Part shown: positions 1 through 58,500 of the stretch, one piece after another | Layout of the letters: the number at the start of each line of letters is the position of its first letter | Numbering within the stretch: the first letter of the stretch is position 1 | NCBI GenBank assembly: GCA_003344405.1 | Contig: NOWV01000143.1 | Coordinates: 62,001-126,000, forward strand | Reading direction: 5' to 3' | Length of the DNA: 64,000 bases | Source: Trichoplax sp. H2 | Taxonomy: Eukaryota | Notes under the pieces: generated by a model | The model's database searches: none | What the model was told of the DNA's origin: nothing | The model's input: only the letters and a program-made list of their open reading frames with translations | Made by a program: the position numbers and the translations under genes

Positions 1-102
1 CAGTACACTGTACTGTACAGTACTCCACTATACAACAGTATACTGTACACCCTACCGTACTATACACCGTACTGCGCTGTACTATACAGTACACTGCACT
101 GC
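1..102. repeat. TACAG/TACTG/TACAC pentamer micro-array (also 3364-3400, 3624-3780, 10120-10415, 19490-19620, 19850-19955, 20222-20345, 63070-63125)
   Basis: Directly visible quasi-palindromic low-complexity arrays such as CAGTACACTGTACTGTACAGTAC. Confidence 0.85.
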
Positions 103-211
103 ACGTCATTGCGGCAATTTTCAAAATCGTCAGTCGGTTGGTTTTTGCAGCATCGTTCTCCATCGACAAAACTGTAAATATCGTCAACACAAGCAAATCG
201 TTGTCAAAATC

Positions 212-1241
212 ATGTCTAGTCAAGCTCAGCGGAAAGAAAATTTACATGCTACTCGGCCTCTTCAAGGTTCGGTTCATGGGTTGATGAGTTTAATTTGGAT
301 TGAAATTAGCCTGTACAATGCAAGTAGCTGTATTGCTGTGTACTGATGTCTTTTTCAATGACTTGTTTATTGATCGATGGATAGGAAAGCAACTTCTATC
401 CAATCAGTCATCAACGAAACGTAGGGCCCTAGGAGATATTGGAAATGATACAAAACTAAGAAAACAGGCTTTACCTAAAAAGCATAATGTACCTCTTGGC
501 AATGTCATGAAAAAAGAAGTCAACGTTGTTCGTGATACTACAATCGACTATGACTGTGAAATCGAGAAACCATCATTTCCGTTAACTGGTTCGTATACTG
601 TAGTATGTACTGTATAGTACAACTAAAAGTTGCATTAATAAGACTCGGTGTAGTTTGCCTTGAAGTGCAATGTTAATAACGTGTATTATTAAATTGTGTT
701 ACACATTGAATGTCTGCATGTACTGGAATACATTGAATTCATGGAATGGACTACAGTAATCGATGAAGAGGAAAATTTTGCCCCTCCAACTTTCTTTCCC
801 AACGTTAAAACTCGTGTAACATTAGACTTTGTCAGGACTTCACCGTGCAACTCAAGCAATACGCTTGCATTGGCTGATTCTAATTGGGAACCTAATTTAT
901 TGGAACTTATCGGTATGCTTGCTATTTTTAAGCTGTAAAACATTCAATTATTTCTTTATTTTTACGCTTGAATCTGTCCAATAATTTCACTTAATGCACT
1001 TCCTAAGAAATCAACTATAGTCACCTAATAGATGATATGTTGTTGAATAGTCTTACTAATTACGTGTTGAATATCGTGGATGAAAATATATTTGAATACT
1101 GTACTCTAAAATGTTAAAATGACTTCAGGTTCGACAAGTGCCCAAGATAGCATGACGTTGTGTCCTGTCAATGAAGATGATGATCTGGACGGTGATGACT
1201 ACAGTCAGCTAAGATTATCGGATATTGACTTTGAAATGTAA
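212..1241 (+). CDS. Securin-like (PTTG1-like) KEN-box/D-box protein, 175 aa, 4 exons (212-266, 385-588, 757-912, 1129-1241)
   Basis: Four exons joined by phase-1 GT-AG introns give a continuous 528-nt ORF: MSSQAQRKENLH...KRRALGDIGN...YDCEIEKPSFP...DDDLDGDDYSQLRLSDIDFEM*. It has a KEN box, an RxxLxxxxN D-box, an EIEK motif and an acidic C-terminus. The gene model is well supported; the family call is inference. Confidence 0.65.
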
Positions 1242-4117
1242 TCTGTGTACAGTACATACCCTCATTTCCAATATTATATCAGTTAGTGTACTATAAATCA
1301 TAAGACTGATAGTGATATCACTTTACTCTCTACTTTTACATAGTCTACTAAGTAATGTGGCTTAATGTCAATTTATTAACTGCTTGATGAACTACAAGTA
1401 AACGTTTTTCAATATTGCAATTTGTAGTTTACTCACTACTACTTTAAATCGGACAAAGCAGTGTTTAGAAATAACTAGTTTTCTTACCGAAAACCCTGTA
1501 CAAAATCGATATGACTACAGAAAACATTTATTTATTATTGTACAGCTATATGTGTGATTTAAACTATTACCAGAGGATATATACTGTATTTGTTGCAGAA
1601 ACAACATCAAAGTGGTCATCAATGATTCATTTTGTTCTAGTTAATCCATGCTTCTACTTGTGTGTCCCATCAAACGTAATACTTTGGTTGAGAAATCATT
1701 GGATGATTGATCAATCCGACATAGCTATGCCTAATATATATCTATCTTTATCTACTATACTTAAATATTGTCTGTTTGAAGGAACAATTGCCTTCTTTTT
1801 CCAATGTGCATTACAATGACACTTTAACCGATAAACCATTTGCAAAGCTTGAACTTTTGATAAATGTAAATTCAACTTTAAAATGAATTGATGATTTATT
1901 GCACTCGATTGCAAATAACTGTTCCAATTTTGTCTACATGATTTAAAGCGTGTATTTATTATGTATAAATAAGGCGGTAGTGAACTGCCCGGTACATTTT
2001 CAATAACTAGTTATTAGGCTATATTGATGCTGAATCAAATTAGGCATTGCTGTTTTACATAAATCAGGAAAACTGATGCAATGCACGTTTACTCAGAGCA
2101 GGAACAAGTAATAATCATTTTTTTACTTGAAACAACAACAGTAATATATCATGAGCAAATCAGGCTAGTCGTAATTGTATGTTGCTTCCTTCTATAGTAC
2201 TTCACTGATAATTACATAGTGTGTTATATTGTCATCCAGTTATTCGGACTCACTTCTCCGTCTACCCGGGTAGCCTTTATTTTGCAGATTGCAGGTACTC
2301 GGATCATGTTTTATTCTTCTGGTTATTATGTGCAATTGCATTAATGTAATTGGATCATCTCAGTATTGCATATATGTATTTAATTTATTGATATATATAT
2401 ATATAGACTTATACAGTATATGCCACGTATAATCCACATCACACGGCCAGGCACTAGACTTAATTGGGCACTCGGGTCTGCAAGCAATTCAGAATGTTAC
2501 TGTACACTGTACATTATGTCGGTATTAGAAAACGACAATAATCGTACAGTAGTATCGTGCGATGCTAAAACTAAAATTATAGCCAGTACTATAAAACTTT
2601 GATACGAATCAAGATATTTAATACTAATCATGTCAGTGCTGGTAGACTGAATTATTAAGGTATGATAGTGCACTAAGCATAACATCTGTTAATATTACCA
2701 GAACTTTTATTCGCACAGTATGGTGTGCGGGTTCGGCTGCTGTAGCTAGTTGTACGGTAATCTAGACCCGATCATGGTCTACAGTCCACACTGTTCAGTA
2801 TGTTCTAGTAATAATCTATGTACCATATTAAAAAGTGAAGTTGAACGAGTGGGTACTAGCTAACTCGTACACTATAAATATTAAATATTACCAGCAATAC
2901 TGGTGAAAGTTTCATCGTCTATTTTAAAAGCGTCAAACACAATACGTTTAAACGTATTACTGGAAGTATGATTTGAGAATTATAATATCTTGATTTTTAT
3001 CTATAGGCGCTACTTTTCCAATTCAGTTATCGATGACAAGTTGAATGAAGTACCTATGTAATCCCCTTTCATTCGATAGGTGTGAATAGTAAAGACTACT
3101 ATACGAGTAAAACGCTTGAAAAATATACAAATCATTACGGACTGTATTATGTCTGATGGTCGGTTAGAACATATTAGATCCATTTTTACACCATTGCACT
3201 ATCGAACGTTTGACAGTGTACCGGGCTTGGAGGATTTGCTGCAGACACTTTATCGTATTAACTTCACTTTAATCTACGTTGGATCGATTGAACGCTGCAA
3301 AATAACAACTATAATTCCACTCTCGTAATATCCAATTTGCATTGATATCGTTTCATCTACAAGGTACTACTGTAGTGTACAGTTACTACAGTATAGTATA
3401 ACGTGATTAATTTCCTTTCCGATAAATCGGTGCATGTCTTTGTGATCAATTTTTACGACGAATTCTATAAAATTTATATGAGACGAAAGACTGGTATAAA
3501 TTTGACTCCAAACTGGTCTTCCATTTATTCCATTTTTTCCTCATTTGAACCGAAATTCATCCCATCGTACAGTACACTGAATCAACAATATAGTGTGGAA
3601 AACGGACAGACAGACATCAAGTTACGGTACAGTACACTCACTGTACTGTACAGTACGATAGAATGGCATGCCGCTCTACAGTACAGTACAGTATGGCGAT
3701 TGCAGGCAGTTTAATCCAGCTTCAGCCACTGACTGCGCCGCAGACTACAGTAGAGTACAGTACATTGTACTGTACAGCACTTCAGAGAAATGAAGCAAAG
3801 CCTGACTCAATACTCCATCTGTCCAGTAGTCGGCCGTAGACCGCACGGATAGGGAAGACTACTGTAGAGACCCTTGGTGAACACTCCATTGCCTCGTAAA
3901 ATCAATGAATCAGTAGACAATATTATGCAAGTCCATGGTAGTGGCTAGAGTTTCTATCCTATCGATGGTTAAATATGGAAAATAGTGATAGACAAAATTC
4001 TTGATTGGTAGAATAGATGGTATTAACATTGATCCAAGTGGCGTTAAAGCTGAAGAAGGAAATTGAAGGTATAAAAACTGACTGTTAGTAGGAACTCGCA
4101 CGACTGTATCGAACGCA

Positions 4118-7100
4118 ATGGCGTTATCGCGTTTGCCAGGTATTTTAGCAATGTACCAATATGCTGTCAGTGCTCACAAAGTTGCCATCAGATTACCGAC
4201 TTTATCCTATCGAAGTAAGTGGACAAAGTTCAATGTACACATTGTGTAGAGATGGAAATGAAATTTTGAATACAGCAGAATGAGATGTAATCCTACTTTC
4301 ATTGTCATATGGAACATTGTATCAGTGCTTTGTTTTTATATTACACTGCTGGCTTGTAGTAATGTACTTACAATATCTCTGGTCTCTGATTTGCCTTGCC
4401 GAGAGTTTACTTCAGTGATCATGGAGTCAATGACGTACTGGATTAATTCTTGCTTAATCTATGCTATCATTCTAGTTTGATAGAAAGATTATCTGATTCA
4501 ATAACCCCAAAATCAATACAAATACTCAATTTACTTGATATTAGTTAGTACTGCGGGACTACAATATTTCATCACAGTTACACCAATTGAATTGCTAACT
4601 TCATAGCAACACGTATTCCAAACGTAAATCTCCTCTTTCATTATGCTAGGTGTTTCCTATGACTTGACTGCACTATTTCATGATCGCAGTTGGGTAACAA
4701 AGTATCGTTATGCAGCACCAATTCGTGGATGTGCAAGTAGCAATCACAACGACGATCCGAAGAAAGAAGATAAAATGGATACCAGTACGGTTGAAGCCAA
4801 ACGTGAGTTTTCGACATTGCAGCTTACTACGCTATTTCTCTTTGTCTACTTTCGACCTAAACATGGATTATTATACCACTGCATAGAAATTATAATCATC
4901 CTTCTATTTCATTAGTTTTGGTGGTTATTAATAGTTCAACAATTTAAAGTAATAATGCTATCATTAAAATCGTTTCTGGCTCTCTACAATTTCGGATATT
5001 TTTGTGATGATTTATAGTATTATGGTACAGTAGATAGAGAGATATAACAAACTACTACGGTATGCATTATGTTTTCAATGACTTACTGTCAACTATAGTA
5101 TACAAGTATGTGTAGTATGAATTGCATGAACGACTTTCAGTCTACTGAAATGTTAATATAATTAGGATGCTTTGCTTTATTTTGGGATAATTACAGCTAA
5201 ACCTACCAAACCAAGATGGAAACCTACAATTATGGACAAAAATGCCAAGCATACCCAAAATACTCAAATTACAGTTGTAAGAGCAATGAACGATTACCTC
5301 CTGACTTTAGAGTAAGTTGAAAGATTATAATTCGTTACTATTTTCACAGCACTGCTATAAGATGCAATCCATGATAACTTTGTTAGTCGATTTCTACAAT
5401 CGCTAAAATTTGGTACAGTAATATATTTGACAGCAATTACATTGATAGTTGACTATATTGCATGTAGTACTGCAAAGGATGTCACGTTGTATCGCGTACA
5501 ATAGTTGTTGATTTAAGCTTTATACTAACACGTACGTAGCAACAAATTGAAACCTTTTGCTTGATTAATGTAGAGATTTACAGGATCTTAAACATATATC
5601 CGTCCGCAGTGCTTATGCATCGGAATTTACCTCGGAATTTATATATTGGAAGTCGGATGTTGAGAAAAGGTAATATCTTGAATATTCTATTTAGGTTATG
5701 CTATGTTTAAATTCGTTTCAAAAGACGATATAAAAAATACGATTTATGAGGGTATAACATACGTGTAATAGCTTAAAAATAATGAAACTTGTTACATCCA
5801 TGACTAAGATTTGATAATTTATTTGGTTTGCTTCATTAGGGCAATAGCAAAATGGGGAAATTTGGAGAATTTAGATAAGGAATTACGCAAAGTGAAAGAG
5901 AAGCTTGATGATGATGAGAGAGGAAGACGAGGTTATAACTTTCTTCAAACATTGTCTTTCTAATAGTTTTAGTAATCCGTGATGGCTATTGTTTTTATAT
6001 GGACAAATATTGGTTTACTCTTACTTTTTAAAAACTATACGTGATTCTGCAAAATGTAAGCCACCCGGATTAAATCTTACATTGAAGTATTCTTTTGCTT
6101 TATACAATAAGGTTTAAGCGCCTTAATGGGACATTTGAAAAAGCAAGTTAAAGATCAGCAAAAATTAAATGTGGATCATAAGGTGATTTAATTAACGTAA
6201 GATTCAAAGTTGTAGATACTGATGCTGTCTAGTTGCAAGCACTTCCGTTGTAATTATGTTATTACAAGATATTGACGCATGCTGGTCTGGTCTAGTGCTT
6301 TATACCGTATTTCGTAGTAATCTTATACTAAATAGATCTTTTATGTTAAAAGCTGTTTGGTAGTCAAGAAGAACGTATGTCACACGTTCGAGGCTCTGCA
6401 AAATTGGTTATGTATGCTATTCTAAGGTACTACTTATCTACTTTATAATATTTATTAACTATAAATGTCAATGTAAAGTGCGTCATTAATACTACCTTCT
6501 TCCTGTTTTTATTACTGCTAATAGCTTACTCGCTACCTAACTATTATATAATATATTTTTATCTTAATTTTAGTAATGTTTCCGTTATGTGCTTTAAACT
6601 ATTGGCATATATTTGGACTGGTTCAGCTTCAATGCTATCAGAGGGAATACATTCTCTAGCTGATGTAGCCAATCAGGTATAAATTCTGAACTAGTTGTTG
6701 TGCCTATTTTATAGTTATGTGAACTGATCTTTCCACATTATTCTCTAGTGTCTATTATTATATGGAATATTTTACTCCCTTAGGCAGCCTTCGCCTGATC
6801 ATCCGTTAGTTTCAGTTACTTGATATTTCTTAGTGATGATTTAATGATAGTAAGCCTTATGAATGATTAATACATTACTATATTGCATTCTGTCTATAGC
6901 TATGGATTTTCTCGTGCACGCTACGTTTATGCTCTCATAAGTGGAGTGGGTATCTTTTGTGTGGGCGCCGGCGTTAATATATATCATGGAATCTCGTTAC
7001 TTATGAATCCTCATCAGCTTGAGTCATTGCTTGTGGTAATTTGGAAATACTACTACAGCTTGTTGTCGAATTATGATATAAATCTCTTAGAATTATTAAA

Positions 7101-8655
7101 TCCATAGAATCCATTGATTTATAAAATTTACTACCTGTGTCAACTTATGATATTGTACATTTTTTAAATTACCGAAATATGAAGATATTGAATAATTATT
7201 TATACTACAGGCATATTCTATACTCGCCGGCTCATTCGTAGTAGAAGGAGGTAGATGTGGTTTTATAATTGTATTAATAATACCTATTTGTAATATTGTT
7301 AAATTGGAAGATCGTTTTCTTAACGATTGATGAAGAAATAAACTTCATTTTTAGCCACACTTATGGCTGCCATCACTCAAGTTAGGAAAAATGCAACTGA
7401 GACTGGTTTAACCTTCAAGGAATATGGTAATGTTGGTGTTGATGTGATTTCCATTCGGTCAATAAGGTGCTAATTTACCCTATTTCTACACTATAGTTTT
7501 AAAAGGACGCGATCCAAATGTGGTAGCAGTATTATTAGAAGATGGTATAGCAGTGGCTGGTGTTTCGTTAGCAGGAATTTGTCTTGCCCTGGCATCGTTA
7601 ACCGGAAATCCATTATACGATGCAGCAGGATCTATCGCTGTTGGAGGTAGTATAAAATACTTTATATCCATTGCTGCTGATTACATTTAATAAGTTAGTG
7701 AATTAATTAAGGTTGTACCTTTTACGAAATAAAAATGTATAATAAAAATTAATTACAATAGGTATGCTAGGCGTGATGGCTCTATTCCTTATACAACGTA
7801 ATGGTGATGCTTTGGTAGGCAGGTAGGTTTTATTCATTAGTTCTTACTACGCCGAACCAATGATGTGATTTCATTAACAGTAATTGTGTAAAATATTCAT
7901 TATTGATTGGATAGATCTATCCCGTATAATCGCCTTCGACAAATAGTGGAGCTAATAGAAAATGACGTTATGATAAGGTTAGAGACAGTGATCAATATTG
8001 TTTAGTCATATAAATTACCGTATTAAGATTGAATTATTTTTGGGGGATATTAGATCGATTCATGATGTTAAAGCAACGGAATTGGGTTTGATATTGCTAC
8101 TAAAATTGTACAATTTTTGTAGAATAAAAAGCAAATGGTGGTTTTTATTAAATTATAATACATGTCTTATACACTAAAGGTGCGGATACCGTTAGATTTA
8201 AAGCGGAAATCAATTTCGATGGTCGTGAAGTTACAAGGTCCTACGCTAATAATATAGACTTGGAGGAGCTACTTGTTGTAGGTTGCGTTGATTGTAAAAT
8301 AGAATTGTAGAGTATAGCTTAGCTTATTTTGATTTTAGCTTTGGTTATGAAGACTCTTCCTTTTGTTGATAGTGCGTAAAGGAAATAAAAACTGTTGAAG
8401 AATTAAATGAGTTTATATTGCATCACGGTGAACGTGTCATTGATGTATTGGGTGTTGAAGTTGATCGAATTGAGAAAAACATTAAGGTGAGTCCACAATG
8501 ACAGACAAATACTGTACTTTTCTTTTGCTATCCTGTAGATCAATAACGTTTAAGCATTAATTAGTTAAATTTAACTTCTTGGTATGTTGATTTTATCTAT
8601 CATTTAATAGAAAGCATCTCCTGAAGTCCGACATGTGGATTTAGAAATTCTATAA
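4118..8655 (+). CDS. SLC30A9: Zinc transporter 9 (CDF family, mitochondrial), multi-exon
   Basis: Exons encode a transit-like N-terminus (MALSRLPG...), then NTQITVVRAMNDYLL, TGSASMLSEGIHSLADVANQ, HPYGFSRARYVYALISGVGIF, GRDPNVVAVLLEDGIAVAG, VRFKAEINFDGREVT and the characteristic end PEVRHVDLEIL*. Confidence 0.95.
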
Positions 8656-10719: not shown

Positions 10720-12454
10720 ATGACTGATACCAACGCTATTCCAATGTATACGCCATTCTTTGGTGTGATGGGTGCTACAGCAGCTATGGTTTTTAGCGGT
10801 AAGTGGAAAGTTTTTTTAGTTGTCAGAAGAGGGAACGGTCAATTTGGCCACAGTAGAAGTGTCATTTTTCCCACCATGTTGTACTGTACTGTATACAGTT
10901 GTAGCAGGGGTTGATAAAGCGTTTCAACTTGCGAGTGCATGGTGGTCGATGACAAGTCTACCATTTTTTTTTCTCATCATGTCTTTTATTTTATCCTACT
11001 TATCTTTAGCCTTGGGAGCCGCTTATGGTACCGCAAAATCGGGTACTGGTATCGCTGCCATGTCTGTTATGAGGCCCGAATTAATTATGAAGTCCATCAT
11101 TCCCGTAGTTATGGCTGGTATCATTGCCATCTATGGTCTTGTAGTAGCTGTTTTAATCGCCAACAGAAGTATCCTTAACATCCACATAAAATAATGTGAA
11201 TTATCGTACAACTCAAAAGAGATATTACAGTACAGGAGGAATAAAAAAGATACACACACTGTGTCAAACATCATATTTCTTTTCCTTAACTTAAACTTTT
11301 ATTTTACAGTCAAGCCAACCGAATATACCTTGTTTATGTAAGTACACCGCCAGTAAGAAATAGGGAACATATGTGTACCAATATGCCCTTCTAACGCGAC
11401 ACATGCTAGTCGCTGATATACCTTTGTAGTCTTAACTTGAATTCCCGTCATGGTATATTGCTTTCGATCGACTTTTACTCTACATTACAATCATTTAGTT
11501 TGGAAGAGACTGTCCGTAAAGCATATCAATATTCGATATTAATTCCCTAGATATTATCGTCATAACAACTTACTGTACTGTCTTTGTATCAAGAACTGGT
11601 CAGTCAACCAGTTCAAAGCGAGAATAGGGTAGCCATGAATATCTAAAATACTTTTGATAGTCGCCCTATCGTATCCATTGAAGTGAATTCCAACTCCTAC
11701 TTACAATAATATCTTGCTATCAGATAAGATACAGTCCGCCGCCTCCTCCTCCTCTTTTTCGAATGTTTCGACGTAGTAGTGCCATTTTACTATCAGTTCT
11801 CTTTCCAAAAAATATCTAGTCCGATCACTTCTCTATCGAACCAACATAGTATTCTAGGACAATAGATGACTTCTCTCTCAGTGATGTTCATTTCTTGATG
11901 ATCGTAGAATTAGATAGACAATCCAATGCTACAACGACATTGAAATAGCATTTCATTCTTGAACTGTTGTCACAAACAGTAAAATGGAATCATTACCCTA
12001 TTAAGGTCATTAAATTCACCTTTCATGTTCAAGATATAGCTTGTAGCGCGTGTAATCAACTTATTCTAGTTGCCCATATTGCGCCACATGTTGCGTTGAT
12101 CTCAATAGAAGATGTATGAGTTGAAGCACGCTGTAGTATGTTGATCCCATTACCAATGTCAATGAAACTTAACCATGATTCTATCTTTGAACATTTTTTG
12201 AACTTGACGCATTTTAATCTTGTTGAAATGGATTTTCTTGTAGGAGTTTTGTCGATCTTGGTGCCGGCCTAAGTGTTGGTCTTAGTGGTTTGGCTGCTGG
12301 TTTCGCTATCGGTATTGTAGGTGATGCTGGTGTCCGTGGTACTGCCCAACAGCCACGTCTTTTCGTCGGTATGATCTTGATCCTCATCTTTGCCGAAGTA
12401 TTGGGTCTTTACGGTTTGATCGTAGCTCTGATCATGTCAACCAAGTCTGGTTAA
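10720..12454 (+). CDS. ATP6V0C: V-type ATPase 16 kDa proteolipid subunit c; exons 10720-10798, 11010-11168, 11310-11337, 12244-12454
   Basis: The spliced product reads [63 protein letters not shown]...[46 protein letters not shown]. All junctions are in frame. Confidence 0.98.
11169..11309 (+). other. U12-type (minor spliceosome) GT-AG intron
   Basis: The 5' splice site is GTATCCTT. A branch point TTCCTTAAC lies at 11282-11290, about 20 nt before the AG. Splicing keeps the frame ([12 protein letters not shown]). Confidence 0.9.
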
Positions 12455-13636: not shown

Positions 13637-16600
13637 TTATAAAATCTTTGAAAATATTTCGTTTAATCGCTTAACCATAGGGCGAGGATCTTCTCCTAGC
13701 CCTGCTGTAATCATGGCATTATCGAAAATCTATATACCGGAAAAGTGTCAGGCAGATAAATAGGATTAATATTATACTAGTAGATTTTTGTGCCAATTTT
13801 ACATGATATTACTATCACTGACAAATGATATGCATTCAAGTTAACTACGCAGCTTCATACCTGCTCTATAATTAACGTGGCCAGTTTTGGATTCTCAGGG
13901 TGTAACTTTGCAAGTTTATGCATTATTTCATGTCTATTAGAAGAAAACAAACAATCGATCATAAGTAAGATGATAACATGTGCGCCACATCCATTCATTT
14001 TATTTTAATCGACCTTAACTACCGATCATATGATAAAATCACGTTTTATCATATAAAATTAAGTACACAAGATAGATGTAGTACAAATATATCATAGCTA
14101 TATCGCACTTTGGATTAATCTCCAATGTTGACTTCAAAAACTGAGATCTTGGTATATTAATTTCGGTGGTTTTCAAAAGTCTTCTAACAATTGCCATATC
14201 CGGCACAGAAACCATAGCAGGATGAGTTGTCAGGTTGTCAGTAGACTAATAAGACAATACAATAACATGTTAGAATATCATCTAGACTGATACAACACGA
14301 TACACAAAGTAGGGATTAGTGCACGCAGTAGTGTCTGGTAGCTGCCACAATCTAAATTAATAAATTGATTGCCAATAAATGGCATTCCTTTACTACATAC
14401 GTATAATGACTAAAGCAACTAGTCAAGCATCTGTGCACTAAATTACTTATCACATTACCTTTACTTCGAAAACTTTTTCTTTGCCAAGAGCCGTTTTTAT
14501 CCAATCGATTAGCTTTGCCACATCTTCATTAGGCAATCTATCCGATTCTGTTTCTTCCGTAACTATGGTCGTACATGAGAAAATAAAAGAACTACTTTGC
14601 ATAAATACATCTTGATAGCTTAACGGAACTTAATACTAAGAATCATTATTGCCTGTATCTTTATCTTCTTCAGATTTCTCTTTATCAACAGTGTCGGTTT
14701 GTTCATCACCCCTAAAGTTTTCAGCTGATATGATGTTTTTCCCTTTGAATTGATGTAAACTTTCCAAAACGATGTCGTCATGCGTATGATAAGCAAATAA
14801 GATCTATGCATTTCAGAAAGCGCGAAATCGTTGAGCATCTACGCAATAAAAAAGCTACTTGTGATTTCCTTTTTTAAAAGCAAAGTCATACCTCTACATT
14901 TTTCTTTTTCAAGGCTTCATAATAAGGCGATGATTCAGCCGCTGCCCGACTTTTTGATTGAAAGAATAAAATCATTATCATATTACATAATATTTCTTAT
15001 GTGCACAGTATATTAGTTAGTTTAAAGTACATCGTAACGTGATTAAGCTAACATATTGCAGAGCAACTTCTTACTTTGGGACACATAGGTAATAGATATG
15101 CTTTCGCCCCGGAGGCATCCGGTCAATATAAGCGGTTAGATTGGTCAATTTTCCGGGCTCTTGAAGTGATGATTCGAAAGAAAACAGTTTTGCAATGTCT
15201 TCCTATAATTGTAAAAGTAAATCTAGATTTACTACGTTTTACTTGGTATACACTGTCCAGTTGATATTTTATTTTTCTAATAAAATTAATGCAAATAAAC
15301 GAACTTTTTTTATACTCAGTATATGAGTATTAATGTGTAAGACGTAACAGAAATCTCACATAAGACTACTTTGTTGATATGCTAACAGACAAAATTAGAA
15401 TTACCTTGGTGGAGCTATCGTCAGCGCTGACTAGACCTTCTCGGAAGAAGAGTCCGTATTTTTGAAAAAAATTTTCAAATTTTACACGATCCTAGTGTTT
15501 AAAAAATGTACGTTGAATTGGGCATTGCAGTTTTGCTAACAACAGGTGTATATCATATACTTATAATGATTTAGGTGGCTAGCATGCTTTTAAATCTCTA
15601 TTACCCTTTTCGCCTCTTCGGCAAAGAAACGCAGGATTCGGGAAGTCAAAACATTGCTAAGCTTTCTAATAATTTTATGACAACGAATTAGTATGTCTAT
15701 AACACAATGCATGGAAAAGCGTCGGTAGTACCTGATTAAAGCATTATCTTGTAACAATTCTCGACTTAAGTTTAAAGGAATATCTTCGCTGTCTACAACA
15801 CCTAAGATATCATTGTAAATCATTGTTAGGAGATTAAGGATGCAGTTGCTATCGGTGATTGCATTTAATTCAATTCAAATACAGTACTAAGCGAAAAATC
15901 GAACATAGTCAGTTACCTCTTAGGAAACGTAACCATTCAGGTAAAATTTCTTTACACTTGGCCTGGATTAAAACCCGACGACTAAATAAGCTGACACCAC
16001 TGTCAATGCGAGAAATTCCTTGCAAGTACATCCCTGGAATATCGTCCGGGACATAAAATAAGCTACGTATACTTAAAGGTGCATCCGTCGTATAGTGTAA
16101 CTTGTAAAGTGGGGTATCAAATCCGCCAGCAATAAATCGGTAAAAGTCCTAATAAAGAATACATGTGAGTCAGTAGGTTGCCAGTCGAGTGTTTTTATGA
16201 ACGTTTTGATACAGTATCTAAAATTAGGTATACTGTGTATAGTGTATATAGAAGGCGTTGATGCCTTCTCTTTATTTTGAATCAATTAACCTGATGTTCC
16301 TGATCCGATATATCATTTGCTCTTTTGGTCCACAAGGCCTATAGAGAATTGTTATAGCATGGTATAGTTAATTCTATGTGATAACTACAGGCTACAGAGT
16401 GTACAGCTACATGTAAACTATCGTACCTCAACTGTATTAGCACATTCACCATCGAGATATATCGGAGATCCAACGAAGTTGCTGTATTTTTTAATCAAAT
16501 CTGCCACAAGAATAAATCGAGGTAAAGGAAAGAGTTGCAATTGCAAGTGAGAAAGAAAAGAAACTTTCATATTGGGTCTACATGGATAAAAATTTTACTG

Positions 16601-20949: not shown

Positions 20950-23900
20950 ATGGAGAAGTTAACTGTCAGTGACTTAAATGTCCAAGATAAGCGTATCCTT
21001 ATTAGGTAATCTTGATCTCATGAAATAAGATGATGTCATGATAACTACAGTAGGTACGAGACAGCAAACTGATGATCGAGAAAAGTGTCTTGAGCTGCAG
21101 CAAGGCGTTTCAATGCTGCAACCAGTCGATGGACGAGGCTGGTTGCTGTTTTGCTGTCTTGGTCCACTAGTGCAATAGGAATCATTGATCCAGTTTAATT
21201 CATCGATTGGCTGGCAGTTTGCCATTTGAATCCCTTGTCTCCTGTCTTTTTTCCTTGCTTGAAGCTGAATTGAGTTGATTTTGAGCAAGCAACGTCGCTA
21301 CTATACAGTACGGTGAAAAAGCGACATCATGTTACTGTCGAAAGTAGGAGATGCGTATAAAGTTGCAATTCTCCATGGTTACCTTAAGTCAAGCTGAACT
21401 CAATCAAGTTGATAGCATAGAACGTAACGATAGCCCCCCAAAAGTCCATTATTTTAATGTAGAATGACTTGCCTCAATGGGTATTTCTCCGAAAGCCTTG
21501 CGAATCTTGATAGTATCTACCCAGAGGTAAATGGCTTGATACGCATATACAAGCTACTCAAGCCTAGACGGTACAACCTCAAGATAGCCGATAAAATACA
21601 TTCGACAAACTTGTTGAAACTCTAGTAGTGTTGTTATCAAGTTGTAGTAGGAAATACAACTAGATCAAATGCGAATAGATGCCATGGCAATTACGGTCAA
21701 TGACCTAAAATGAAAGCTAAAATACTACAGTAAAACTCATCCACTGTACAATCCTCATATGAGTAAAAGACTTTACATCAATACGTTTCAAGACACCTGA
21801 TGAAAATGTTGTAGTAGCGACAACAACATCAGTTTACAGTAATGTCCCCATCAATGGAAATGCTATAATAGCAATAGTACAAATAGGTTATGCCATCTTC
21901 CATGGGGTATTCAACTTATTTTTGATGACAAATTTCTGTTAGGGTGGATTTCAATGTTCCTTTGGATAAAGAACTGAACATTACCAACAATCAAAGGTAA
22001 GCTTTGCTCGATCATTTTCAATCGGTTAAGATAAATTGCCTATCTTTGGCTGATAACTGATTCCATAGTAACAAATTGACGATCATCATAACCGACGTCA
22101 AAGCTTAGTTAAAGTCATGTAGTCATTTTTAAACAACTTAAAATCATGATGAAAAGCTCTTCCTTGTCATGGATAATTTCGATCATCAATCATCATAACC
22201 GACATAAAAGCTGAGTTAAAGTCACGTAGTCATTTTTAAACAACTCAGAATTATGATGAAAAGCTCTTCCTTGTCATGGATAATTTCAATCAAGGCTCGT
22301 TTACAATATTACGACGGTAAATTGATGCTGCTCAGCTAATAGCCATAAATTTAGAAATTCCTTATTTCAGCCATGGCCAGCAATGGAAAGGATTTTATTG
22401 AGATAGTTCTTGTATCAAGTTGCAATAGTCCAACAGTTATGATGTGCACGGTGATACCACTCGTAGTTTGAATCAAGGATAATGTAAATGTAACTACTGT
22501 AAAAGTCATTCTGTTACCGAGCTTAAAGAACTTCTAGCCTTACGATTGTTATATTTTATCTCACAATTGCACGATCAAAGCATCTCTGACCTCTTAAAGT
22601 GCCATTCCAAATTGACAATGCACCTCCTGAAGAATTGACTCAAAATTAATTACGGAGTTTTACTTTATCATAGGATTGTTGCTGCCTTATCAACCATCAA
22701 GCATGTCTTAGATAATGGAGCCAAATCGGTAGTTTTAATGAGTCACTTAGGTCGCCCAAATGGTAATCGTAATCCAAAAATGTCCCTTGCTCCAGTAGCA
22801 GGTGAACTAGAGCGCCTTCTTGAGAGGTATGTCGAAATTGAAACAAGTGCAGTATGATTTTGATAACAACTTACTCAATACCCATCATTTGTTTTCATAC
22901 TATCAAATTGCTTCTTACTTCTCCTACGGGAGGACATAATAGACTATTTAAGGTTACTCAATTAACAATGCCACTTTGGTCTACTTGCATTATAGGAGTG
23001 TCATTTTCTTAGATGACTGTGTGGGTCAGTCTGTTGAAGAGGCATGCAGCAACCCTCGTCAAGGTTAAATTGAAATAATCTTATTAGTAATAGACATACG
23101 TAACACTTATCACATCTATGTAAGATAAGTTCTTACGATAGCATATCAATGTTGTAGGTAGTATCATTCTACTAGAAAATCTACGCTTTCATGTCGAAGA
23201 AGAAGGTAAAGGTGTCGATGGCAATGGCAAGAAGGTAAATTGTACTATTTGACCGTGTGGCGGTATCTGGAGAAAATTTTCATACATCAGTTTTAAGAGG
23301 ACAATATATACGCTCGTTTGAAAATCTAGATTACAGCCAGCAAAGATCAGGTTGCTGTCTTCAGAGAATCATTATCTAAATTAGGCGATATCTATATTAA
23401 CGACGCCTTTGGTACTGCTCATCGAGCTCATAGGTACTTCAATAATATTCATTATTCTGTAAAATTTGAATCCATGAAATCTTTCACTGTCAATGCCGTA
23501 ATATAAGTTCGTAAAATACTACATTCGACTACGTGACTTTAATAAGGGAGTAGATACAAATTCAGCTATATTTGCCGTTGATAATTATGATAACATTTGT
23601 TTCATGATTCCATCATTTGCAACAATATCATAACTGAGAAATTTGCTTACGTATAATTCGCTATTTATGCTGTAGCTCCATGGTCGGTGTTGCATTAGAA
23701 CAAAGAGCTGCTGGCTTCTTAATGGCCAAAGAATTAAACTACTTTGCTAAAGCGTTGGAATCGCCTAAGCAACCATTTCTAGCTATACTTGGCGGGTATG
23801 CAAAATAGCATCATTTCGTTACTGTCTATGTAATCAATGGATAATTCATCGAAACTGGAAAACATATTTACGATTATTATACAAATTCTACTTGAAAAAT

Positions 23901-25057
23901 TTATTTAGAGCCAAGGTGAAAGATAAGATTCAATTAATCGAAAATTTAATGGATAAAGTGAATGAGATGATTATTGGGGGCGGAATGTCCTTCACTTTCT
24001 CCAAAGTATTAGATAACATGCAGGTACACTACAATGAACAGATTAAGCATGGCTGTATTGGATGCTAGCAGGTGTATATGCTAACCTTACTAACATTGAT
24101 GTTGTCTTAATGTACAACAGATCGGAAATTCACTATTTGATGCAGAAGGATCAGAAATAGTTGAAAAATTAGTGGAAAAAGCCAAAAGCAAAGGAGTTAA
24201 ATTACATTTTCCTGTGGATTTCGTCACGGCAGATGCTTTCTCCCCAGATGCAGCAGTATATTTACCCAGATATTAGATAGATATAGATTAATTGATTAAT
24301 TAGTTCCTTTTTACAGCTTTCGCTACGTGTATTTACTATTGATAATCTCATTATTCTCATTTATTGCATGTCTCAGACCAGCTCAGCAACGGTAGAGTCC
24401 GGTATACCGGATGGATGGCAGGTAAATTATTTTTCTTCCATCAATTTGACCAATGCAGTAGGAATCTAATCATCTTTATTATTACTTTTGTGCTTTGAAG
24501 GGTTTAGATTGTGGTCCCCAGAGCATTGCTAAATTTCGAGAAGCCATTAGTCGTGCAAAGACTATAGTTTGGAATGGGTTTGTAAAAGCTTGAGCAATTG
24601 AGATCATTTTATGTGTAGTATAATCTACATAGATCTTTCTAAAAGATAGTAGTTGATTAATACTTTTTCGTAATCCGCGAGTAGTTATGATAATTAAGTT
24701 TTTTGTTACATCATTTTTAGACCTCCTGGTGTATTCGAGTTCGAAAAATTTTCTTGCGGAACGAAAGGGGTCATGGAGGCCGTCGTTGAAGCTACTAAGA
24801 ATGGTGCAATAACTATCATCGGTGGTGGAGATACAGCTACATGCGCTGCTAAATTCCGTACTGAAGACAAAGTTAGCCATGTTAGCACCGGTGGTGGTGC
24901 AAGTTTAGAACTGTTAGAAGGTATGATAGTTATTTTCCCCCAATGTATAAATACTTTACTGCCAGCTAAATTTCTTCTAACACATTGGTATTATTCCAAT
25001 TACTTGATGTTAGGAAAAAATCTACCGGGAGTTGCCGCTCTATCTAGCAAGTTATGA
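20950..25057 (+). CDS. PGK1: Phosphoglycerate kinase, about 13 exons
   Basis: Exon 1 (20950-21005) encodes [19 protein letters not shown]. Later exons encode [85 protein letters not shown] and [13 protein letters not shown]. Confidence 0.98.
22081..22293. repeat. Two tandem copies of a ~108-bp unit in PGK intron 2
   Basis: ATCATCATAACCGAC...GATGAAAAGCTCTTCCTTGTCATGGATAATTTC occurs twice with a few substitutions. Confidence 0.9.
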
Positions 25058-25740: not shown

Positions 25741-28700
25741 TCATTCATCCACGTCCATTAGCATTAGCTCCTCATTATCATCATCTTCAGTCAATGATGT
25801 CCGTTGTTTAAGCTCTCCTAACGTTAATATATATTCTAACGTGGATCTATTACTATTGCACCTATATAAAAAATATAAGCAGCTTAATTACCTAAAAAAT
25901 GTCAGAACGGTGCTTACGTAAATTCATGTACGTAGAAGTATCACATCTTACAATTTTGATAGATCATTTTTCTTGTCCTTAATACTCTTTTGTAGTGAAA
26001 TCAAAATTGGCATAATATCTCCCGATTTCTGTTTCAGAGCAGTACCGTGATGCATTAACAATCGATTAGACCAGATGAGATAGAATTCTAGGTGACGTGA
26101 TGTTTCTAACTCGAACGCAACAAATTGAAGAATTTTTTCTACGTAGACCAATGGTAAGTACTGGCAAACCAAATCAACTAAGTAGGCAAATAATACAGTA
26201 TTTTTGCTTGTAACACTTTCCATCATAATCATACGATCTTATCAGACGTTATAACAGTACTTACTGCTGTCAGGCTTGATATTTTCAATAATTTCACGAA
26301 TGATAGCAACTTCATTTAATCTGAAAGCTAACATTACCGAAGCAAGATAATTGCCATCTTGCAAATTCTGTCGAATAGTTTCAGGGGTAACATCGATACT
26401 TAAATCATACGGGTCAAAGGTTAATGACGAATCCAGTGAATAAATCATCAGACCTTCGGTTGTTGCAGCAGCAAATGAATGGCCTAAATATAAATATAAA
26501 TTATGAGCATATTACGCATAAAAGGCAGATTTAGCTATTAAAAAATAGTCGTAGCGTCATACCAGATGGGCTAAACTGTAAACTTTTCACTCGTATTTCA
26601 GGTCTTACTTTTCTGGAACTCATATCACCTATATAAATCAAATTGCACCGAAATAGTACTTACATACTACTGATTACATGATAAAACATTATCAAGTATT
26701 AATACAACCTTTAGTGACACCAGGTAATGTAATGTCTTCCTTATCACTATCATCACTTAAATCTAGCTGATCTAATGGTCCTGCCTCTGTCATCAAACGG
26801 CTATTCAAAAATTCCTACAGTATACAAAGTAAGATTTTATTCCTCTTTCACATCTTCAACAACATTGTCATAGACGTGTTGATACAAATGACAAATAACC
26901 TGAATACCATCCAAAGATAGATTACGTGATACTTCGAAAGCTTTCAACAAAACCTAACAGATGGCCAGTTATGAACAAAATTTTGAAATTTTTCGTTGTA
27001 CTATATATACAAAATGTGTAGAAATCGGAGAATTTATGCGTACCTGTTGGTTAATATTATAAATACAAATACGCTTCGATCTACCACCTGCTAGGACATA
27101 TTCACCATCCGCAGAATAGCAAAGACAATTAAAGCATCTACATGCGTATATTTTCAAATAATAAATCATCGTTAAATCGTTGTTTTAAAATAGTATTCAA
27201 CTTTTATATTACTACTCAAATAATTGTCAAACTAACTTTCCTTCCGCTGACTTCTTAGCTGTTATAATATCCTGTGAACTTCTACCTCCACCTAAGTCCG
27301 CTTTGGCATCGATTGATCGGGTTTGCATTGCATCTATACTATTCCAAAATGATAATTCGCCATTATATGTCGCCACTGCTAATTCTTTACCACTGGGGCT
27401 GAAGATTGTAAAAGTTGCTAAAATAATAAATTATTGAAACATAGAATTTAGAAAAGAATATCACACGCTATCCCTATTAACATTATTATTATTACCGATC
27501 GAATTGAACTGTAAACATTCCACAGCAGTATTTTTCTCGTATATTTTCCATAATCGAACGGTCATATCCCAAGAAGAAGAGGCTAGTAATGTGACATCTT
27601 TACTAAATGTTAAGGACGAAACTGGGCCTTCGTGACCTTTTAAAATCTATTTCAAGGCAAAGCAATGCGAAATTTTTTTTACTTCAATAAATTTATCTTT
27701 TTATAAGAAGCAAAAGCTGATATTTGTGGTCACAATAATCATCTAAACAGCTGTTGCAATGAGCAAATCATACCTCCAATAGTTTACCAGTCTGCATTGA
27801 CCATACGTAAATATCAAAATGATTATGCGAGCCAGCAGCTATAATTTCATCACCATCTAAGCCAAGACATGAAAATTGAGTTGGAAATGGCGAAACAAAT
27901 GTTCTAAAGTTTCGGTAGCTGTACCATCAAAAAGGTTGTCAATTTTCAGTCTATCAAACAAATATTGCCGTGATGTAGTTTCCAACAGTTAATAAAAGTA
28001 TTGTCTTACCGTATCAAGTCGAATGCTCGTACCGTTCCATCTAAAGAAGCTGAAACAACTACTTGACCATTGGACTTGAATGCAAGTCCAGTTATGCTTG
28101 AATTATGTTCGCTAAAGGTAACAAAGCAGAATCCAGAAGATGTATTCCATAATTTGACCTGAAAATCATATGCAGATATTTCATATGGCAAGTCTATAAG
28201 GTATGCAGATAAAAATAAATATACATAACCATGATTTACCTTGCCATCATCTCCTCCTGTAGCAATTATCTGTCCATCCGGAGAATAAGATAATACATTC
28301 ATATCATAGTAATGGCCTTGTTGCTTTAAAATATATGTCTGACTTTGCCATTCCCATACTAATAGCTGTCCCATTCCAGCACAACCAAACCCCAACCATT
28401 CTCCAGTTTCATTAATAGCAACAGTAGTAATTTTCTGTTGAGATATGCTGTCAATTGGATGTAAAATTTATAACTTTACTGTATAATTTATTAATACTAG
28501 AACTTTTAATGATAATATAATAGCACCGTAAGAGTTACCTCAAGGAGTGAATAAGATTGAAGTCAGGGACTTCATAGAGAGTAAATACTCCGGTATTAAA
28601 GCCAACGATTAGCATATTGTCTCTCTTATGTAAAGTAGCACATGTTACTTCGGCACGATCTTGATTGAAGTAATGCCTATGTTGGATTATGATATGACAC

Positions 28701-31294: not shown

Positions 31295-31565
31295 GTGATA
31301 CCAATAAAACGATCAATTATTCTGGTTTACATACGATTTTAATGCAGTAGATCGAGTTTGATACAAGTTTGCAGACTGCAGGAGTCAATTTTAATACATA
31401 CAGTACGTTATCATCACAATATTGCTGATTTCCAAGTGCTGTTTAGCATCAAGCTTATTTGAGCATTACTGCCCATATTACTGTTCAATCTTTCAGCGGA
31501 CAAGTTGCATTTTTAACTTGCTTATTCTAGGACACCTTCGTATAGTAGTTAATTAATATTATAAC

Positions 31566-32485
31566 ATGTCGAAAGGAATTAACGTTCGAGATGCATTATC
31601 AAGATGGGAAGAGCGAACTGGTAAGAAAGCTGCGGACGAAAAAAAGATCAAAATATGCGGGATGTTACCTTTGATAGAAAAAATGGATGCTTCCTTATCC
31701 ATGTTGGTCAATTGTGAACAATTATCCCTCTCTTCTAATTCTATTGAAAAAATTGCTAATTTGAATGGATTAAAGAATTTAAAGGTTCTATCTTTGGGTC
31801 GTAATAATATCAAGAGCTTGAATGGAGTGGTAAGATGATTAGTATCAAGTTGTTGAATAGTATACTTAATCAGTCTACAGTTACACATTAATGTAGCATA
31901 ACCTTTTTATGCATTTAATGATGAGCGATCGTGCAGTGGAAAAATCATTACTGTAGATACCCAAATACTTATTTTAAAATACACCGCATTAATACAGAAC
32001 AATGTGCTATCGATACTTCTAAACTACTAAAAATGTATCATATTCTAAAAAACGTATACCAAACACGTCAGACTAGCTTCACCTGTTTATCATTAGATAC
32101 TTTACTCTGATTAAAATTTTCTTCAGCAATTGGCATAATTTTGATTTTATATTATATTATATAGGAAGTATTAGGCGATACTTTGGAGCAACTCTGGATT
32201 TCTTATAACAACATTGAAAAGTTGAAAGGTGTCGATCATCTTAAAAAGTTGAAAGTTTTATACATGTCCAATAATAGGGTTAAAGATTGGGCCGAATTTC
32301 AAAAATTAGCTGAGGTAGCGCAGTTGGAAGACCTACTACTTGTTAACAATCCAATAGAAGAAAAGCACTCCAATGATGGAGACTGGAGAGATCAAGTTAG
32401 CAGGCGCTTACCAAAGCTTAAAAAACTAGACGGTGTCCCAATAGTTAAGCAAGAAGAAGACGATGAAGAAAATGCTGAAGATTAA
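31566..32485 (+). CDS. DNAL1: Axonemal outer-arm dynein light chain 1 (LRR); exons 31566-31829, 32165-32485
   Basis: [47 protein letters not shown] / [16 protein letters not shown]...[11 protein letters not shown]...LPKLKKLDG. Confidence 0.97.
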
Positions 32486-55500: not shown

Positions 55501-58500
55501 CTTGTACACCCATTGTCTTTACTCATCTGTTTAAAACGTAATAAATAGATTTCTGTCTGTTTACACGATTTCGAATCTTTGGATAGTTATAACAAATTGA
55601 AATACGTCGATTACGATTACGGTAACTACAGCAACAACTCTTACACGAAAAAAATTTGGGACCATTTGAATGATTTAATTTCTCTTAATGAATTCTCAGC
55701 TATTAGGCTGAGCGGAATTATTGGTAATCTATTAGTAATTTAATCTAGCTATTAATGGTAGTTAAAGCCTTAACTCTACGTAGTTTTCTTGATGTGGAAC
55801 ACATATATAGCATAAACTACGGTATAGGCAAAGTCAACATACACATTTTTTATACCACCTTTTGTAAACTGCTTAACAAATCATAAATCGATAATACCAG
55901 TCTAAAATCAGGTCTTTACTAAGGTCATCGTTATTTCCATCACTATTATTATAAACTTTATATCTAGATAGTACTGCACCAGGATTGATTTAAGTTCTTA
56001 AAATTTGAAACATAGTAATAGAAGAATTTTGAAATCACATGAAATTTAAATAATTGTTCGCAATATTTCATTAATACCGTACCTATCCATAGCCTTATTG
56101 CTGGTAAGAAAACAATTTTGTGATCAAATAAAAAAAATTTTCTTGGTAAATTAGGATCACATTATGATAGGTCTGTTTTATAAACCATAGAGTTATAGCA
56201 TACAGTCTGTAGCAAAAATACGCTCGTCCGTAAATCATATAGTTTACCTGAAAGTCAAAATGAGAAGCTGGCGATTATTATAGCAATTATTGTTTTCCTA
56301 TTTTGTCGATTAGGTAACTTCATAAATGTAGCAGTTTATTTACGCGTAAAATGTACCAAAATATAGAAACTCCTATCCTTATGTTACCGCGCCATTTTTT
56401 CTTACACTTATAACTTAACTATTCACTATATCGCTTAAATATACAACTTCCCTTTTACTAATAATGTTGATATCTCCATCTAAGCGTATATACGCGGATA
56501 CTGTACTTTCCCGGTATTTATAATATTTATGATAGAGATTTTGTAAATGATTTTAATGATTTAGTAATACTGTACGTCTACTTTCGGTTAAAGTGGGTAT
56601 ATAATTGCGATATTTATCACGACATCATTAATTATTATTGTGTAAGAGAGTAGCCAAACTTACATAAACACTAAGAACATGATATGGAAAGGATCTTCGC
56701 ATTTTCGTCTATCCTTACTAATAGTACATACATTGCTGTGGACTTATATAGTAACATATATACTCCATTGGACCACAAAGTCTATTACATACATTTTTCT
56801 CTTCTGAATTCAAAACTAGAATGATATACTGATAAGGCTTTAGTTAATGTATGGTTTTCTGACTCAAACGGAATTTTCAGTAAGTCAGTTTACCTACTAG
56901 AACAGAGAATCTTACCGGAGTTTGATTATGTATTAAGGGCAAACAATGAGTGAAAATATGGCTGTTTCCGGGATGTAAAAGTAGATTTCATTGCATTCGT
57001 AAAGTGGGTACATTACACTCTATATAAATGCTCCTATTAATGGAATGAAAACATAGGCATTACCAGTATATGTAAATATAATTAGCAACAAAATAATTAA
57101 CTGAAAGCGCCGTAAATTAAAATAGATTATTGAAAATTGGGATACTTTCGTAAGGCAATCGGCTGATTTTGTATACTTAGATGTATGATGCGAGTTGATG
57201 AATGCAACTTACTTACTTGATATCAGCATACGAGTATATACCATGTAGATCTGTATTTATGCTCTTTATCTATGGAATAATCCGCTTGCCAGTATGTTGT
57301 TACATTGATCTAGTCATTGCAATTATATGGCTTTTATCTTAAGGCTCTCATATTTAAGCAGGTCAATATTTCAGCTTAATCTTCACTCTAGAGGTTATGT
57401 TTAAGTAATGTTATTAATATAGTTATTGATAATCAATTAAGTGTAACCAATGTTATACTAATGTAATCAATTAAAGTTGTTGATATTTATATTAGTAGTT
57501 CTCATTTTAATTAATATTTATCTTTTGCACATGTCGAAAATAGGGAAAAACAAAATTTTTATGCTTTGTTACAATTACTTTGCTAACTTATGCATATTAC
57601 ATTAACAATAATCTCACCGGTATACCACATTAACTATTATTTCATTTCTAAATAGTCACAAACGTTACGTCAACAGCAGCAGCAAGCGTTAATGCCCAGA
57701 AAAAGATCAGATTTATTAGCTCCTACAAGTGGTCAAGCATATCATCACGATGGTCCAATTAATGAAGTAGTTTTACGAAATATGGGCAGTACACCAAACT
57801 ATGATTTGCCACCGCAAAGGATGCCTGGTAAAGATCAAGCTACAGATTCTCTTAAATTGAAATATAAATCCATGTTAATGTCTGGTAATAGAAGAAAGAA
57901 ACAATCAGGTGCAAGCCTTGATTTAAATAGCGTACAGGCTAATTCAGTCAACAATAGGCCATCGGTATATAAAAAAGGATTTCATAGTCCAGCTAATTCA
58001 GATATAGCTGTAACAAACTCACCGATTGCTAACTTAGCCGATTCAAAGGTTAAAAGCATGTCAGATCCAGCGGTAGGTGCTGCTTGTACGCCACATGATG
58101 ATGAATCAACGTTGCCGATAACGAGTAGCGTAGGCATGAATATCAATGATCCAACATCGGGTAAGGCCGTTAACGTATCATTAACACCATCTACATCGAA
58201 CACCATAAGTTTAGATGGGATCGTACCAATGCAAGGTAGACATGTACAATCAGTTATTGGCCACCCCAATAAATGGCAAACTTCAACCAATGATGCATCT
58301 GCTGCTACTGTTTCTGCGACATTTATGAGTCCATTTGGTGATATGAATGAGACGAATAATGCGCATACCATACCAGCTAATTATCATCCTCGACCAAATG
58401 GAACAGATAGCAATTTACAACAAGCTAATCACCCAGTGCCATCATTGCAGGTCCAAGTATCGCAACAACAGTCACAACAACAGCAACAACAACAGCAGCA

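Follow-up and report, generated by a model that had tools for sequence, protein, structure and literature searches.

We analysed a 64,000-nucleotide stretch of the genome of the placozoan Trichoplax sp. H2 (contig NOWV01000143.1, positions 62,001 to 126,000; hereafter the window), which carries near its start a small gene, TrispH2_008959, that likely encodes a placozoan securin, a function we infer from its motifs, gene model and co-expression. By reading the DNA and translating its pieces we assembled a coding frame of four exons on the forward strand (positions 212–1241; Table 1), comprising 528 nt, or 175 codons and a TAA stop. All three introns run from GT to AG and are of phase 1, the codon being split after its first base. 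A homology search with the exon 2 peptide showed that the spliced product is letter for letter the "hypothetical protein TrispH2_008959 [Trichoplax sp. H2]" (175 aa, 100% identity).

Transcript evidence came from contigs of four public runs aligned to positions 1–3000 of the window. Run X15 is RNA on record, X9 and X6 are probable RNA, and X1 is unspliced throughout and DNA-like. Intron 1 was removed in two of the four runs (X15 and X9) and introns 2 and 3 in three (X15, X9 and X6); X1 covers positions 7–2047 unspliced and contains none of the three joints. One 1273-nt contig of X9 is wholly explained by positions 129–264, 383–587, 756–911 and 1128–1903, with no further exon in that contig, and the first ATG of this mRNA contig lies at 212. 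The untranslated regions (UTRs) are given only as far as the RNA contigs extend, and the contigs cannot fix the true 5′ end of the mRNA. Unspliced or intronic RNA contigs were also seen (X15, 238–412; X6, 926–1077) and were read as pre-mRNA or DNA carry-over. TrispH2_008959 is a real gene that is spliced and expressed. A preliminary description, made from the DNA letters alone, had proposed this four-exon, 175-aa open reading frame (ORF) in an early-branching animal, had expected it to be annotated as hypothetical at best, and had named splicing into additional domain-coding exons as a reason to abandon its reading. All three GT..AG joints are present in the RNA contigs, which hold no such exons; the source is a placozoan; and the gene is labelled "hypothetical protein" and is unnamed in the tables of the placozoan cell atlas.

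Securin acts as a pseudosubstrate of separase, whose cleavage site is (S/D/E)xExxR, and known securins have a large hydrophobic residue at P1 (PMC10317155). According to PMC6690013, nothing is conserved among securins except their D box, their KEN box and a Glu-bearing conserved patch, and all three were found in TrispH2_008959 in the correct order. A regular-expression scan placed KEN at residues 8–10 and a D-box, RRALGDIGN (RxxLxxxxN), at residues 31–39, both N-terminal as in securins, with EIEK following at residue 77 inside DYDCEIEKPSFP (73–84). Two overlapping segments fit [SDE]xExx[not R], namely DCEIEK at 75 and EIEKPS at 77, which would make a non-cleavable patch with the key Glu. In the same scan neither the canonical separase site ([SDE]xExxR) nor ExxR had a match anywhere in the 175 aa. 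Residues 19–72 are basic (12 K/R versus 4 D/E), and acidic segments lie at residues 73–92 (8 D/E) and 141–175 (11 D/E versus 1 K/R). The KEN, D-box, basic region, EIEK segment and acidic tail of the preliminary description were thereby all located by regular expression or charge counts. Among 200,000 shuffles of the protein, KEN arose in 10,185 (5.1%), RxxLxxxxN in 13,914 (7.0%), EIEK in 266 and KEN together with the D-box in 704, and not one shuffle held KEN, D-box and EIEK in the observed order. On these counts, therefore, each motif alone is cheap and the ordered set is not. A single-sequence AlphaFold2 run gave no fold (mean predicted local distance difference test score, pLDDT, of 36.8; 169 of 175 residues below 50); single-sequence runs often give poor models anyway, and the low pLDDT agrees only weakly with disorder of the protein.

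Human securin, PTTG1 (O95997, 202 aa; PF04856), is of similar size and carries KEN, D-box, basic linker and acidic pseudosubstrate in the same order, as the preliminary description had said of vertebrate securin. Its sequence is printed in PMC11524581, where it is listed among disordered proteins studied by nuclear magnetic resonance. Comparing that sequence with TrispH2_008959 by eye, after both had been seen and without statistics, we found six colinear matches: KEN; R[RK]ALG; EIEK then FP; PL.[IV][LI]DEE; WE.NLL; and a C-terminal DID. The pseudosubstrate core EIEK..FP is common to both proteins, as EIEKPSFP (77–84) in TrispH2_008959 and EIEKFFP in human securin, where it starts at residue 113 and where changing 118-FP to RE makes securin cleavable (PMC6858450). 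Residues 163–202 of the human protein are predicted to lie on the N-terminal HEAT domain of separase (PMC10317155); the WE.NLL and terminal DID of this region are shared by TrispH2_008959 and kept in placozoans, again judged by eye only. The two proteins differ in the gap from KEN to D-box, 23 residues in TrispH2_008959 versus 52 in human, and in the tail before the C-terminal motif, which is longer and more acidic in the placozoan protein. Functional securins that show no recognisable sequence similarity include Pds1 and Cut2 of yeast, IFY-1 of C. elegans, Pimples of Drosophila and PATRONUS of plants. Securins as a class are characterised by a KEN and/or D box near the N-terminus, a conserved patch whose key Glu serves as pseudosubstrate, an unstructured polypeptide, and binding to separase through the C-terminus (PMC6690013, PMC10317155), a definition that TrispH2_008959 would share. 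However, the yeast, worm, fly and plant securins were defined by genetics and biochemistry, and TrispH2_008959 by sequence and co-expression only.

We then asked which of these parts are conserved. A HMMER search of 1.84 billion representative proteins gave five matches at E<=0.001. One was TrispH2_008959 itself and three were short ORFs matching exons 2, 3 and 4 at 69, 60 and 51% identity. The fifth, a 405-aa protein (E 8.8e-5), consists of four filamin repeats (PF00630, E 1e-34) and was dropped, as its score is most likely chance summed over the repeats: similarity of 24–36% recurs in each repeat unit through the pattern KRRA...TIDYD.QKE.PP..IT. This match was set aside because TrispH2_008959 has no Pfam Filamin match. 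A profile search contributed a second exon-4-like fragment. Each fragment is an ORF call on a single exon, and together they derive from two or more further placozoan-like sources; their intron-derived ends were trimmed for the orthologue alignment. Over exon 2, where a second placozoan-like orthologue is 69% identical, KRRALGDIGND and the 15-residue IDYDCEIEKPSFPLT around EIEK are invariant. Further invariant blocks are PLGN and, in exon 3, IDEEE and NVKTRVTLD; exons 3 and 4 also preserve NWEP.LLELIG and QLRLSDID.E. Constraint thus falls on three C-terminal blocks as well as on the EIEK patch and the D-box, whereas linker sequence drifts. Exon 2 as a lone query against metagenome contigs gave 385 pattern matches, of which none was confirmed.

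A language-model feature search also pointed towards securin. Among 30 matches the only Pfam-named set was a cluster of chordate "securin isoform X2" proteins, 51% of whose members carry PF04856; it stood at rank 15 with a score of 0.90 and 176 of 256 features in common, and with residues 60–175 as the query it ranked second among named clusters (score 0.80). We treat such matches as leads and not as proof. A literature search (securin with Trichoplax or Nematostella, and the gene identifiers) found no paper naming TrispH2_008959.

Expression data were taken from supplement file 3 and part of supplement file 4 of the placozoan cell atlas (PMC10580291), and cell-cycle module membership is as given in its published table. 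There TrispH2_008959 has no name and no Pfam entry and belongs to orthogroup OG_2803, whose members Hhon_g10994, TriadG56115, PlH23_004773 and TrispH2_008959 are single, unnamed genes from four placozoans. In three of the four the orthologue sits in a module annotated "cell_cycle_2" (Tadh.red, 0.638; Hhon.green, 0.846; HoiH23.black, 0.79), and these modules contain PLK1, CDK1, Aurora kinases, cyclins B and A, and CDC20. Expression with the mitotic programme, as expected of a securin, is therefore seen through the orthologue modules. TrispH2_008959 itself is in TrH2.green (score 0.905, 35th of 422 rows), a module without an entry in the annotation sheet, together with cyclin A1, CDC20, a geminin, FBXO43 (Emi2-like), CNTD1, an HSF5-like factor, a Tudor protein, XRCC3 and many orphans; TrH2.green may represent a germline-like or oocyte-like state. 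The same files list the separase of Trichoplax sp. H2, TrispH2_009495 (Peptidase_C50), and separate Geminin-domain genes, and within file 3 and the rows of file 4 covered no gene is named securin or PTTG1, the only related name being a PTTG1-interacting protein.

From these data we infer that TrispH2_008959 binds and inhibits separase, is destroyed through the APC/C (anaphase-promoting complex/cyclosome), and shares common descent with the vertebrate PTTG securin. It would be a small, mostly unfolded protein produced in dividing cells, whose C-terminal two thirds (approximately residues 73–175) would run along separase. The acidic patch D75-C-E77-I-E79-K80-P-S-F-P would imitate the (S/D/E)xExxR site of cohesin and fill the groove for the substrate without being cleaved, because neither possible register has an Arg at P1. 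The downstream blocks PLTVIDEEE, NVKTRVTLD, NWEPNLLELIG and QLRLSDIDFEM may grip the rest of separase. The APC/C with CDC20 or CDH1 would recognise the KEN box and D-box at the N-terminus when metaphase is reached; ubiquitination and destruction of the securin would then free separase, and cohesin would be cleaved. What is new is a name for a previously unnamed gene; securin itself is a known kind of protein and we claim no new mechanism. Judged from its sequence, TrispH2_008959 is probably a very divergent PTTG homologue.

Several results weigh against this assignment. At E<=10 the Pfam securin model PF04856 matched neither the whole protein nor its three longer exons nor four orthologue fragments, noting that HMMER filters remove most matches above E ~0.1; membership of the family by the criterion of its hidden Markov model (HMM) therefore does not appear supported. 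Searches of the PDB, which holds separase-securin complexes (7NJ1 and 5U1T; PMC10317155), returned no securin chain, whether by phmmer with exon 2, exon 3 or the whole protein or by profile; a filamentous hemagglutinin (E 0.44–0.84) was the only match and was taken as chance. That ordinary searches miss the protein had been anticipated in the preliminary description. Searches of 1.84 billion and 5.8 billion proteins gave nothing beyond TrispH2_008959, exon-sized placozoan-like fragments and the one filamin-repeat protein, and in the language-model search unnamed eukaryotic clusters outrank the securin cluster. The pseudosubstrate register is ambiguous: TrispH2_008959 has one extra residue between EIEK and FP, so that P1 would be Ser82 or Lys80 (then followed by Pro) and not the large hydrophobic residue of known securins, Phe118 in human PTTG1. 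Human securin also carries NxLxΦE, LPE and a hydrophobic stretch (PMC10317155), and its 130-LPE docks on a separase exosite, the yeast equivalent being VPE (PMC6858450). By regular expression, TrispH2_008959 has no match to LPE ([LVIA]P[ED]; residues 130–132 in human) or to NxLxΦE. The nearest strings are F-A-P-P at 94–97 (F-I-P-P in the other orthologue) and P-L-T-V-I-D at 84–89, respectively. To these points must be added that the six-motif comparison was made by eye, and that the orthologue fragments cover exons 2, 3 and 4, whereas KEN lies in exon 1 and was read in Trichoplax. Lastly, the preliminary description had proposed co-expression with cyclin B as a check. Such co-expression holds for the orthologues in three of four placozoans but not for the H2 gene, which lies outside the cyclin B2 module: H2 CDK1, PLK1 and cyclin B2 are in TrH2.bisque4 and not in TrH2.green (PMC10580291, files 3 and 4).

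The most serious rival is sororin. TrispH2_008959 could serve cohesion or the cell cycle as a different small substrate of the APC/C, the most plausible being a WAPL antagonist akin to sororin, whose C-terminal LSDIDFE contacts cohesin and whose EIEK is incidental, although we consider this unlikely. Sororin (CDCA5) is indeed small, belongs to the cohesion system, is an APC/C substrate with a KEN box and ends in a short motif of acidic and hydrophobic residues, and its Sororin-domain string YFRDIDAFE resembles the C-terminal DIDFE found here (PMC11148194). The small size and cell-cycle expression module of TrispH2_008959 would suit such a protein, and the names sororin and CDCA5 occur zero times in the atlas module table (PMC10580291, file 3). 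However, the FGF motif of sororin has no match in TrispH2_008959 by regular expression, and residues 141–175 are acidic, unlike the K/R-rich cluster that precedes the C-terminal motif in sororins (PMC11148194). The Sororin-domain spacing F-x-x-Φ-D-x-[FY] could be reached only with a deletion, and two of three orthologue sequences have Leu in place of the second aromatic. Pfam at E<=10 found no sororin, geminin, cyclin or kinase domain in the protein, in line with the preliminary description, which had seen neither cyclin nor kinase domain and had allowed that sororin, geminin or another APC/C substrate family might match better; the fragments likewise lack sororin, geminin and cyclin matches. 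The sole Pfam match of the whole protein, the unrelated ASPRs (E 0.083), is below the family cut-off and was taken as chance; the three longer exons and the four orthologue fragments drew no Pfam match of any kind at E<=10. Moreover, a sororin-like protein would leave unexplained the invariant 15-residue EIEK block, the canonical D-box and the securin cluster as nearest named neighbour. The EIEK pseudosubstrate patch is absent from sororin, which to our knowledge has no canonical D-box either.

We also regard it as improbable that TrispH2_008959 has a different function, as a disordered protein under cell-cycle regulation that is peculiar to placozoans and whose likeness to securin arose by convergence of short linear motifs. 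The cheapness of single motifs (KEN and RxxLxxxxN in the shuffles above), the lack of any homologue beyond placozoan-like sequences in very large searches and the silence of the PF04856 model would all fit convergence. Yet no shuffle gave the ordered triple, conservation is centred on the D-box and EIEK block, and three more colinear matches with human securin, noted by eye, lie downstream of the pseudosubstrate. Furthermore, securins are known to evade sequence searches (PMC3195147, PMC6690013), separase is present in the species, and file 3 and the rows of file 4 covered in PMC10580291 name no further candidate for its inhibitor. It is very improbable that the frame is a chance or non-functional ORF or only a piece of some larger gene, for instance the N-terminus of a cyclin B. 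It is true that the frame is open upstream of the ATG up to the start of the window, and that the RRALGDIGN D-box resembles that of B-type cyclins. However, the four exons cover the 1273-nt RNA contig fully from its start at 129, no ATG precedes 212, the 175-aa product was annotated independently, one orthologue is listed per species in four placozoans, and Pfam finds no cyclin domain. We therefore excluded this explanation on the RNA contigs and the four-species orthogroup. A placozoan securin remains the best-supported reading.

The genes around TrispH2_008959 were surveyed with Pfam on 68 of the 76 stop-to-stop ORFs of at least 75 aa in the window, the eight inside positions 1–2010 being omitted (Table 1). 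These neighbours are ordinary and unrelated to the securin candidate, and no Peptidase_C50 domain was found among the 68 ORFs scanned. The window is rich in introns, and its longest uninterrupted open frame by a wide margin, 774 aa at 57656–59977 (+), matched no Pfam family at E<=0.001. Short repeats rich in GTAC (CAGTACACTGTAC-like) at 1–110, 600–621 and 2500–2517 flank TrispH2_008959 and recur in its intron 2. At these sites the contigs of run X1 branch, end or are joined (23 to 2498), and the repeat is therefore a dispersed low-complexity one. The hexamer TTTGAA, the cell-cycle homology region (CHR) consensus, occurs at 120–125 (−), 4 nt ahead of where the longest RNA contig begins at its 5′ end; it was given no weight as evidence, as chance alone would give 115 copies of TTYGAA in the window, where 125 were counted. 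The window contains 20 N and has a G+C content of 34.3%.

Table 1. Features of TrispH2_008959 and of the neighbouring genes, in window coordinates.
Feature	Position	Strand	Evidence or content
5′ UTR, as far as RNA contigs extend	129–211	+	start of X9 contig; 83-nt leader without ATG
Exon 1, coding part (residues 1–18 and first base of codon 19)	212–266	+	KEN box (residues 8–10) at 233–241
Intron 1 (118 nt, GT..AG)	267–384	+	joint 266/385 in X15, X9
Exon 2 (residues 19–87, part)	385–588	+	D-box RRALGDIGN at 420–446; basic linker; pseudosubstrate-like DYDCEIEKPSFP at 546–581
Intron 2 (168 nt, GT..AG)	589–756	+	joint 588/757 in X15, X9, X6
Exon 3 (residues 87–139, part)	757–912	+	acidic IDEEE at 759–773; conserved NVKTRVTLD block; WEPNLL at 885–902
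Intron 3 (216 nt, GT..AG)	913–1128	+	joint 912/1129 in X15, X9, X6
Exon 4, coding part (residues 139–175 and stop)	1129–1241	+	acidic stretch; conserved C-terminal QLRLSDIDFEM at 1206–1238; stop at 1239–1241
3′ UTR, as far as RNA contigs extend (~660–680 nt)	1242–1925	+	ends at 1903 in X9, at 1925 in X6
Cation_efflux	6449–7104	+	Pfam on ORF pieces
V-ATPase subunit c	10820–12451	+	Pfam on ORF pieces
HSP90	15593–16148	−	Pfam on ORF pieces
PGK	23769–25054	+	Pfam on ORF pieces
Utp12 + WD40 protein	25951–28467	−	Pfam on ORF pieces
LRR protein	31557–32482	+	Pfam on ORF pieces

Securin is a central switch of chromosome segregation and evolves fast. In a phylogenomic survey it was found in fewer than half of the metazoan genomes examined (PMC3195147). 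Naming TrispH2_008959 would supply a missing part of the cell-division machinery in an important non-bilaterian model, and would offer a short, testable protein for studying how separase is regulated where an animal has very few cell types. The finding is of use for annotation and as an anchor in tracing how a rapidly changing regulator evolved. The securin parts fixed over the longest animal distance would be the D-box, the patch around EIEK, WE.NLL and the DID at the C-terminus. More tentatively, and with a little less than even confidence, we suggest that TrispH2_008959 is a true PTTG homologue that has kept the six colinear motifs of human securin, has no LPE and NxLxΦE exosite motifs, and carries Ser or Lys-Pro at the P1 position. 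If so, the end-to-end antiparallel wrap of securin along separase, from the active site to the N-terminal domain, would already have been fixed in the placozoan-bilaterian ancestor, and the human exosite motifs would be later or interchangeable additions. Moreover, the placozoan sequences would then anchor a profile able to find the 'missing' securins of other animal phyla.

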